A stretch of 64,000 bases of DNA from a virus: the IMG/VR virus record IMGVR_UViG_3300011271_000009, positions 2,076-66,075 of that record, one strand, 5' to 3'. The position numbers and the translations under genes are program-made. This document shows, one piece after another, positions 27,611-31,100 of the stretch. Positions within the stretch are counted from its first letter, which is position 1; each line of letters begins with the position of its first letter. The notes under the pieces were generated by a model. The model ran no database searches. It was not told where the DNA came from and saw nothing but the letters and a program-made list of their open reading frames with translations.

Positions 27611-30291
27611 GGCGTTAGCGGTGGCCCGGCGCAGCCCTCGAATTCAAGCTGACCATTGATGTCGGCTGATGAATTCTGGTTGATATACATCAACCGGTCT
27701 TCATCCAGCAGGATGCGCAATTCGCCGTCATCGGTATGGGTCAGGTTATGCAACGCCTCATGCAGCAAGGTCGATGGGACGATACCCGGCAGAGCGTAGT
27801 CGTTGAAGTACGCATCCGTAGCTGGCGGCACTGCCTGGGTTACAGCAACGATCTGCTCAGTCGGTTTCTTCGGGTTCGGCTTCGCCATTTTGCAGCTCAC
27901 CCACAAGGTCTTCATATAATCTGTGAGTGCTGGAACGAGCTTTGCCTTGGTGGGGCTGTACAGCCCAGCATCAAAGAAGTTGATGACCGACAAAGAGCCA
28001 TTGAACCGCTGCTGTCCAGTTACCGCCTGCGCCAACCCGGCACCTGCCAGGCCGTAGAACTGGGCTCGTTTAGGGTCAGCGAAGTACGCTGCGCAGGTCT
28101 TTGAGGCGAGGGTGTTGCTGTCGATGAGCTTTTTCTGCATATCGTTAAGCTGCTGCAACAGCTTCGGGTCACTATTGGCATCGGTGACAGGCTCCTTCGC
28201 AGGCAGTGTGGTTCCGTTGATTGTGATCGGCTGAAGACAACGCATCTGCAGAGGTGGAATTATTATCGGGGCATTAGCTCCCCATTGCGGTATGCTTTCG
28301 ATGGTTGCCATGACCGGACTGCGGTTGCCTACGGGATTGCCTCCCGGCATGGGCCAGGGGCCGAAGTCAGGCAAGAGAAGTCCAGTCTTCTGCACGCTTT
28401 GATAGGTGCCTGCCGTGCTATACCAGTCACCATCGCCCGGATGCAGCCCCGCCGTCGAACCCCCGGAGTTATAGGCCAGATTTCCGGCTGCGTCGAAGTA
28501 GTCTGTCACTGGGCCGCTGGGTCCACCACTATCGGTCACAGCCACCCAGCCTCTCCATAGGGCGGCGATCAAGGCAAACGTGTGACCGGCAGGCGCTGGC
28601 TGGTTGAAGTTCACCGCACCCGCATTCACGTCGAAGGAAACCACCGCGCTGCTATCCGTGATGAACGCTGTCGTGCCCTCACCTAAGATGAGCGAAGAGG
28701 GCCGGTTGCCGTAGTCCTGCAGCGGAAGCACGAAATCAGCGACCTGCGCACCCGTATTGTCGATGTGGGCCACATGGGCGGCTGTGGGCGGAGTGAGGAT
28801 GTCAGGCACATAGGACAGCAAAGAGCCACCCTGCCCATCTGGTATCACCTCCGCAGGCCGGAATCCCCAAACACCTTGGGGACAAGGCCATTGGGGCAGG
28901 TTGCCTGTCGCCTGCTGCCGCACAGTCGTTGAGGTGGTGCCGTTGGGCAACAGCGTAATCGAGTAGAGACTGTTGGTGTAAGCACAGTTGCCGAGCCCAG
29001 TGTAGACGGTATCTGTAGCTAAGTCATCGTTCGTGGCCACCTCAAAAGCGACAGACCCATCGGGCAGGACCGAAATGGGACCGGCAGTGCTGCCGCCATA
29101 GTATTCGTCAGCCACTGTGCCGGTGAAAGCCACTGAGCGCACATGCGTAACCGGCAGCGGTATGTTGGCCAGCATGGCTCCTGTGGCTATGTCCAGAGCG
29201 ACCAGGAAGCCGTGGGCGCTGAAGTTCGGGCCGTAGACACCATTGATCGTGCCGGGGGCATCAAAGAGGTTCTGGACCGCATAGACGACGCCGGATTGGG
29301 TTGCCATGCCAAACCGGAAGAACCTGCCCACAGGGGCTTGGGGGTTATTCTGCCAGCTCAAGTTGCCCGCACCATCGATGCGGCTCAGGGAAGCGGCCCC
29401 CCAGTCCAGCATAAGCAGGCCCCCATCGCCGTCTGCCAAGACCGAACTGATGGAGCTGGCAGGTAGCGGCGAGGCCATCCGCCATACATCTTGTCCACCC
29501 CCGCCAACGCCGTGCAGAATGGTGTTGCCTGCGCTGTCGGCTTCAACGCCAACGAATGCGACTGATCCCGCACCAGGGGTTAGCCCCGTGACACTCCGCA
29601 GGGTGAAGCCTGGTGTTGGGGGCGTAGACCAGAGCACTGTGCCCGTAGGGGGGGTATGGCCACGACCGTAAGGAATTACAGTGATCGCAGCCGTCGCGCT
29701 GAGTCCAGCAATAGACGCTATCACGTTGGCTGTCCCTACCCCGATCTCAGTGATTTGGGGTGGATCGCTGCTTGGGTCAAGGGTCAGCACAGACGGGTTA
29801 TCGCTGGTCCAGGCCGCCCCTGTGACCGGGTTGGAATTCTGGTCGGTAAGCCCCAGGCTGCCCTGCCCATCGCCAGCCATCATGGTCAGCGTAGCCGGGC
29901 TGAGCTGCAGCGCGGTGATGGGCCGGGTCACAGTCACGGATGTGGCTATCGAGCCGACGATGCTGCTGTCTATAGCTGAAGTCGTGTATGCGGTCACGGT
30001 GTAGCTGCCAATGGCCATAAACGTATGAGTCGCTGGGTTGGTCGTGGCTGTAGTCCCGTCACCGAAGTCGATATAGGAGAAGCTCGGTGGGAGGAGATTG
30101 GCCTCGGTTACAGGCGGGCTCCAGGTCACCGTGACTGTGAGCGGGACATTCCCCGTCGCTGGTGCCGCAGTGACCTGTTGAGGTTGGTTGCACATACCTA
30201 CCATAACTTGGCGAGGAGTGCAGGTTGCGCTGAGCGTTTGCGTCAGCAGTAGATAAGAGCAGAGCAGCAAAGCTGTTGCTAGTCGGTTCAT
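27607..30291 (-). CDS. large secreted protein: signal peptide, PKD, Ig-like, beta-propeller, C-terminal HExxH domain
   Basis: MNRLATALLLCSYLLL; IDFGDGT...HTF PKD motif; LSPATLTM...WTSDNPSV Ig motif; TLLHEALHNL; AAGGAG RBS. Confidence 0.75.
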   Translation of the reverse strand: MNRLATALLLCSYLLLTQTLSATCTPRQVMVGMCNQPQQVTAAPATGNVPLTVTVTWSPPVTEANLLPPSFSYIDFGDGTTATTNPATHTFMAIGSYTVTAYTTSAIDSSIVGSIATSVTVTRPITALQLSPATLTMMAGDGQGSLGLTDQNSNPVTGAAWTSDNPSVLTLDPSSDPPQITEIGVGTANVIASIAGLSATAAITVIPYGRGHTPPTGTVLWSTPPTPGFTLRSVTGLTPGAGSVAFVGVEADSAGNTILHGVGGGGQDVWRMASPLPASSISSVLADGDGGLLMLDWGAASLSRIDGAGNLSWQNNPQAPVGRFFRFGMATQSGVVYAVQNLFDAPGTINGVYGPNFSAHGFLVALDIATGAMLANIPLPVTHVRSVAFTGTVADEYYGGSTAGPISVLPDGSVAFEVATNDDLATDTVYTGLGNCAYTNSLYSITLLPNGTTSTTVRQQATGNLPQWPCPQGVWGFRPAEVIPDGQGGSLLSYVPDILTPPTAAHVAHIDNTGAQVADFVLPLQDYGNRPSSLILGEGTTAFITDSSAVVSFDVNAGAVNFNQPAPAGHTFALIAALWRGWVAVTDSGGPSGPVTDYFDAAGNLAYNSGGSTAGLHPGDGDWYSTAGTYQSVQKTGLLLPDFGPWPMPGGNPVGNRSPVMATIESIPQWGANAPIIIPPLQMRCLQPITINGTTLPAKEPVTDANSDPKLLQQLNDMQKKLIDSNTLASKTCAAYFADPKRAQFYGLAGAGLAQAVTGQQRFNGSLSVINFFDAGLYSPTKAKLVPALTDYMKTLWVSCKMAKPNPKKPTEQIVAVTQAVPPATDAYFNDYALPGIVPSTLLHEALHNLTHTDDGELRILLDEDRLMYINQNSSADINGQLEFEGCAGPPLTP

Positions 30292-30304
30292 TCGGGTACT
30301 CCTT

Positions 30305-30586
30305 TCAAAAGTACGTGTGCTCTTTGGTTGCATCCCCACCCGGCCTGCGTCTTCCCGTTCTGGGATTGCGCATCCAGCCGGATGGTTCTTTGTCCCTTAC
30401 GGGATCAAACTCGAATAGGGCTGCGACCGCCGCCTCATGGGTGTCATATCACCAGCCGTCTTCCACGCGCCACCAGTCGTAGTGGACGATGATCCGCGCC
30501 CGGCCAAAGGTCAGCGCGCACACCTGCATGATTCGGCCATCGGCCAGCAGCCGTCCTGTGTAGAAGCCAGAATGTCCCCGCTTCAT
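30305..30586 (-). CDS. 93-codon ORF with one in-frame UGA (30449..30451): candidate selenoprotein or nonsense-mutated gene
   Basis: ATGA-coupled start; reads ...VEDGW*YDTHEAAVAAL...EPSGWMRNPRTGRRRPGG...; ends just before the next gene's RBS. Confidence 0.6.
30419..30434 (-). promoter_or_regulatory. candidate bacterial SECIS hairpin
   Basis: GGCGGC-GGUC-GCAGCC begins 14 nt after the UGA; apical loop GGUC. Confidence 0.4.
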
Positions 30587-30846
30587 ACCATCCTCACCAC
30601 CCGCAGGTTCTTACTGCCAACTGCGATCACACGTCCGCAGTCATCGCAGCTGCTCTTAGTGGAATCCACCGCTTGATTGCGGTCTGCCCAATCTGGGCAG
30701 ACCAGCACACAGTCATCTGAGGGCAGCCTCCCTACAATGCGGCCCTGCTCCATGATCCCGCCGAAGTGCATTTCCTCGGTGATGGACATCTCCAGTGAGC
30801 AGCCGTAGCAGAGGACTCTCCACTTGGGCTTCATAGCCGTACCCAC
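30583..30846 (-). CDS. Cys-rich hypothetical protein
   Basis: CYGC and CDDC; coupled overlaps. Confidence 0.6.
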   Translation of the reverse strand: MGTAMKPKWRVLCYGCSLEMSITEEMHFGGIMEQGRIVGRLPSDDCVLVCPDWADRNQAVDSTKSSCDDCGRVIAVGSKNLRVVRMV

Positions 30847-31100
30847 TCCTTCTTGTCGTAACGCTTCAGCAGCCGCTCCCCAGCAGCCTTGCTGGGCTCG
30901 CCACAGTCACGGTGCCCGCAGAGGCCATGGTTTGCCAGGATGTGGTTGAGTGCCATAGCTATCTCATCCTCTGTCGGGCCGCGCTCCCAGCCGCTGCGCC
31001 TCATAGCGATATAGCTGCGCAGGAGCCAGTACAGGAGCCGCTGGTTCTCCTGGCGCAGCTCTTGTAGCTCGGCTATTAGCTGCTTGGCTGGCCGCTTCAC
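30831..31100 (-). CDS. hypothetical protein
   Basis: GTGA overlap start; coiled coil LIAELQELRQENQRL. Confidence 0.55.
   Translation of the reverse strand: MKRPAKQLIAELQELRQENQRLLYWLLRSYIAMRRSGWERGPTEDEIAMALNHILANHGLCGHRDCGEPSKAAGERLLKRYDKKEWVRL

Follow-up and report, generated by a model that had tools for sequence, protein, structure and literature searches.

A probable selenocysteine codon and SECIS-like hairpin in a conserved gene of an uncultured soil phage

A 64,000-nucleotide stretch of DNA (hereafter the window; positions 2,076 to 66,075 of the IMG/VR record IMGVR_UViG_3300011271_000009) was analyzed. The record represented a complete 67.1-kb phage genome with terminal repeats, and the GC content was 59%. 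A small gene on the minus strand of the window was found to contain an internal UGA codon. The features of this locus were as follows:

30305..30586, minus strand: a complete gene of 93 codons plus a TGA stop, encoding a small protein of the W-[U/C]-Y ... EP.GW.R.P.TGRRRP.GD..KE family (relatives of PHROG 24748, function unknown).
30583..30586, minus strand: an ATGA overlap of the start codon of this gene with the TGA stop codon of the upstream 87-aa ORF (30846..30583), indicating translational coupling.
30449..30451, minus strand: an in-frame UGA, codon 46, in the context EDGW-UGA-YDT, the proposed selenocysteine codon.
30419..30434, minus strand: a SECIS-like hairpin composed of the 5' arm GGCGGC (30434-30429), the loop GGUC (30428-30425) and the 3' arm GCAGCC (30424-30419), with one internal G.A mismatch and 20 nt between the UGA and the loop.
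30305..30307, minus strand: the true terminator of the gene, also a TGA, located immediately before the AAGGAG RBS and the ATG at 30291 of an 894-aa secreted-protein gene.

The preliminary description, made from the sequence alone, proposed a phage selenoprotein on the basis of the in-frame UGA and a hairpin starting 14 nt downstream of it. Both features were confirmed at the positions given, however the mismatch of G and A at the third pair from the loop had been overlooked. The 66-nt region folded no better than shuffled sequence (z = 0.06), and the 24-nt hairpin was the third weakest of 37 distinct TGA-form hairpins (-6.5 kcal/mol against a median of -11.7). Hence, from this one sequence the hairpin was not more than chance, and its significance came only from comparison with related genes.

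The TGA codon was the commonest terminator in the genome, as 26 of 55 non-overlapping ORFs of at least 120 aa in the window ended in TGA. A scan of the window for other UGA codons with an open frame on both sides and a hairpin gave only non-coding-looking frames. An independent Logan assembly of two soil runs, which were possibly the source samples, gave contigs identical across the region at about 12x depth. A 265-nt contig from a third study covered the UGA with no listed change there, although it ended 4 nt beyond the codon and was weak evidence. A soil metagenome from a different study held short contigs about 93-97% identical to this region (window 30215-30455 and 30841-30937), so that a close relative of this phage occurs in another soil sample.

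The window protein itself gave no hit in Pfam, PHROGs or a tblastn search of INPHARED. However, a profile search found 1190 representatives at E<=0.001, and a scan of IMG/VR found 71 related loci. The family with the motifs FGRARI...W-C-Y...P.GW.R...GRRRP, which had been suggested in the preliminary description, was shown to exist, and Cys was its main residue at the UGA column. The aligned codon was TGA in 44 viral loci, TGC/TGT in 22, TAG in 1, GAC in 3 and CAT in 2. Among 152 database representatives the column was Cys in 96, Asp/Glu in 29 and Trp in 6. In every TGA locus the frame stayed open past the codon, and nearly invariant residues were found on both sides of it, in both Sec and Cys forms: W45 and Y47 flanking the codon, then A53, W60, P68, G70, W71, R73, G78-R81, G84, D85 and E89. 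In 25 of the 44 TGA forms the gene itself ended in TGA. Therefore, a private nonsense mutation, a read error and a global code change were all excluded.

Further, the hairpin was compared across the family. It was conserved and covaried in the TGA forms and was largely absent from the Cys forms. The same register with a GGUC loop was observed in 34 of 44 TGA forms. On 43 distinct aligned sequences, 77.6% of cells paired, and the covariation score was 0.422 against 0.178+-0.02 in shuffles (0 of 500) and at most 0.194 when partners were slid. One pair showed AU10, GC9, CG6, UA5, UG3 and GU2. An Ala-rich motif in GC-rich DNA makes GC hairpins easy to form by chance, but the peptide across the stem changed (EAAVAAL, AVAVATL, GSAVAEL, LLSAVAGF, GLTVVSL) while pairing was kept, hence the hairpin was not just a by-product of such a motif. 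The loop U was invariant and the loop G was at least 90% conserved. Synonymous sites were frozen as well: Val54 was GTC in 32 of 40 against a 39% background, and Ala53 was GCG in 32 of 41 against 36% (p about 1e-7), when the third base of Ala55, located in the stem, varied freely together with its partner. At the same register, the median hairpin stability was -11.7 kcal/mol in Sec forms and -5.8 in non-Sec forms (p = 2e-7). None of these tests was corrected for shared ancestry.

The geometry of the element was compared with that of bacterial selenoprotein genes, in which an in-ORF SECIS is bound by SelB (the bSECIS consensus of Zhang and Gladyshev 2005, as summarised in PMC10778597 and PMC4607533). 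The published distance between the UGA and the apical loop is 16-37 nt (PMC10778597), and it was 20 nt here. In E. coli fdhF, read directly from NC_000913.3, the UGA at codon 140 was followed by 18 nt and then by the same GGUC apical loop. The bulged U17 and the loop positions G23 and U24 are conserved in the E. coli element, and U17 and G23 contact SelB (PMC8659212). The phage hairpins kept the loop GU, however their stems were continuous helices of 6-8 bp without a bulged U, a feature specific to E. coli SelB that is not part of the general bacterial model. An Rfam search over 30250-30650 at permissive E-values gave only chance lncRNA matches, and no bacterial SECIS model matched. The phage gene also differed from the known bacterial selenoprotein genes in that its protein family was uncharacterised and had a single Sec with no partner Cys.

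A tree of 67 distinct family members contained a split with 97% support. One clade held 39 TGA forms, the TAG form and one long-branch His form, and the other held 19 Cys, 3 Asp and 4 TGA forms. Of the latter four TGA loci, two (L043 and L061) had their own hairpins with 5-nt loops in the same place, and two (L033 and L038) had none that was clear. A few TGA loci of the first clade (L003, L009 and L022) also had 5-nt CGUGC loops; a minority of TGA forms used CGUGC, CGUGU or AGUUC instead of GGUC. Relatives with a one-step sense codon still carried the GGUC hairpin, namely TGG (L091:3001-3270 and L112:301-618), TTA (L093:1938-2219), CGA (L110:301-627) and GGA (L111:153-464), and one TGC form (L115:301-681) had a perfect hairpin. 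These looked like relic SECIS elements left after loss of the Sec codon. The loci L110 and L111 also changed the invariant GRRRP motif to GRYRP and NRYRP. Such a pattern is the dynamic Sec/Cys exchange typical of selenoprotein families, and it also suggested that any sense codon is preferred to a stop when the UGA is lost. The TAG form (L029:3133-3186, IMGVR_UViG_3300031939_000001) kept an intact GGCCGC-GGUC-GUGGCC hairpin. TAG is two mutational steps from TGA. As SECIS-directed recoding of UAG is known in some bacteria (PMC10778597), this could be Sec at UAG in a host with a CUA-anticodon tRNA-Sec, or a recent knockout.

No tRNA-Sec over the cut-off was found in 45 viral records, where the sub-threshold hits were Ser, Leu or Tyr tRNAs, so that decoding would depend entirely on the host. 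Three bacterial assemblies carried the TGA form. A Dehalococcoidia MAG (G002) and a genome of the same phylum (G372) both had SelA, SelB, a Sec-containing SelD and tRNA-Sec, together with a perfect GGCCGC-GGUC-GCGGCC hairpin in the gene, and in G002 selD was located on the same 154-kb contig as the gene. A proteobacterial MAG (G001) showed none of the four markers, and it may be incomplete or mis-binned. In a sample of 401 genomes of the positive phylum the family was held in only 2, when SelA scored over the curated cut-off in 308 (77%). Hence, the Sec trait is very common in this phylum, and the two positive genomes showed consistency and were not a test. The FDH-alpha genes of G002 and G372 had no in-frame UGA and could not serve as host SECIS comparators, therefore selD was used instead. 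The selD SECIS elements had a GGU loop in G002 and a CGUGA loop in G372, which resembled the two loop classes of the phage genes, and the loop classes might reflect different SelB specificities. Cys forms occurred in jumbo phages of Caulobacter and Brevundimonas, and Caulobacter vibrioides gave no SelA match in the control set.

Based on these comparisons, it was concluded that the family very likely represents phage selenoproteins decoded by the host SelB, and each element of the preliminary interpretation that could be tested was supported. We proposed that, in a host possessing SelA, SelB, SelD and tRNA-Sec, the hairpin 14-30 nt downstream of UGA-46 acts as a bacterial SECIS. SelB.GTP.Sec-tRNA(Sec) would bind its GGUC apical loop and deliver selenocysteine to the UGA, resulting in a 93-residue protein with Sec in a W-U-Y motif instead of a 45-residue fragment. 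The binding of SelB, the incorporation of selenium and the Sec competence of the unknown host of this phage were inferred, with no selenium or proteomic evidence, and since this copy has one of the weakest hairpins, its efficiency may be low.

It was considered unlikely that UGA-46 is read independently of SelB by a near-cognate tRNA, most likely tRNA-Trp, with the hairpin stimulating readthrough or slowing termination. UGA is probably the leakiest stop codon in bacteria, the relatives with TGG kept the hairpin, and the other one-step sense variants suggested that the identity of residue 46 may be tolerated. Residue 46 may therefore be dispensable, and Trp readthrough cannot be formally excluded. 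However, the dominant residue in homologs was Cys and not Trp, and the distance, the GGUC loop and its conserved GU matched SelB-type SECIS elements (PMC8659212, PMC10778597). The base after the UGA was always U, which may be an efficient termination context in E. coli, and the perfect hairpin of the TGC form was as expected for a Sec-to-Cys switch.

A broken or split gene, in which only the 45-aa N-terminal peptide is made and the hairpin is incidental or has another RNA role, was equally unlikely. The weakened hairpin of this copy and the two TGA forms lacking a clear hairpin were in favor of such a reading. Nevertheless, the UGA was kept in 44 divergent loci at 31-59% protein identity, and the nearly invariant downstream motifs (GW.R.P.TGRRRP.GD) required purifying selection on a translated C-terminal half. 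No conserved restart codon followed the UGA, and the window copy had no in-frame start codon between codon 47 and Met72. A sequencing artefact or a genome-wide code change (code 4 or 25), for which only the general precedent of stop-codon recoding in some phages could be invoked, was refuted as far as sequence data can show, since the TGA was reproduced by assembly and by 44 other loci from different samples, a single site in a single gene was affected and followed by a local RNA signal, TGA was otherwise a common terminator, and no suppressor tRNA was seen in the tRNA arrays examined.

Known selenoproteins are cellular with the exception of two poxvirus glutathione peroxidases, the molluscum contagiosum GPx1 homolog and the fowlpox GPx4 homolog (PMC8310308), and a 2021 review of viral recoding lists only two poxvirus GPx genes. 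No report of a bacteriophage selenoprotein was found in the searchable literature. The poxvirus proteins likewise rely wholly on the Sec machinery of the host, and in fowlpox the SECIS lies inside the coding region, however they use the eukaryotic SECIS/SBP2 system and were captured from a known cellular enzyme family, whereas here the SECIS is of the bacterial SelB type and the family is phage-specific. If confirmed, the finding would show that phages exploit the UGA-recoding machinery of the host, and would bring to light a hidden class of phage genes that gene callers split or truncate. It would also offer a compact natural SECIS that tolerates many peptide sequences, and a sequence marker restricting the possible hosts of a phage to Sec-competent bacteria. 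The many states of one codon (Sec, Cys, Asp/Glu, and the one-step codons Trp, Leu, Arg and Gly with a relic hairpin) make the family a good system for studying why selenium is chosen over sulfur. It is about as likely as not that this is a widespread, previously undescribed family in which the state of codon 46 tracks the Sec competence of the host. In that case the UGA and SECIS would work as a switch, dependent on the host and on selenium, for making the full-length protein, and could serve as a marker for predicting phage hosts.

PHROG 24748, an unannotated group of hypothetical proteins of Caulobacter (CcrBL9, CcrSC, BL47, C1 and others) and Brevundimonas jumbo phages, appeared to be the same protein family. 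Although the window protein fell below the threshold of this PHROG, 39 of 148 of its relatives hit it (best E-value 8e-12), and a tblastn search with a Cys-form member gave E-values down to 2e-11. Those members have Cys and not UGA, and BL47 gp271c reads ...DDRWCYETE...GWHRHPKTSRRR... A Pfam search with the 148 relatives gave nothing.

The AlphaFold2 model built with 148 relatives was confident (pLDDT 92.9). It had four strands, a helix at residues 50-59 and an ordered C-terminal segment, with residue 46 at the end of strand 4. No known fold or function emerged: the best E-value in a Foldseek search against PDB was 0.6, AFDB clusters gave only uncharacterised homologs, a wide VIA-align search gave a best Z of 5.5, which was at background level, and a PDB profile search gave nothing. 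The column of residue 46 was C/U/D/E/H in about 84% of representatives, and it was tentatively suggested that the residue is redox-active, nucleophilic or metal-binding. The gene was regarded as a small accessory protein of the early or lysogeny region. Across the 71 loci, no gene neighbours were conserved beyond sub-clade synteny, and the top cluster was the antisense frame of the gene itself. In the window, the upstream, translationally coupled 87-aa ORF (30583-30846, minus strand) had two Cys pairs (CYGC ... CDDC) plus further Cys residues and looked like a small zinc-ribbon protein.
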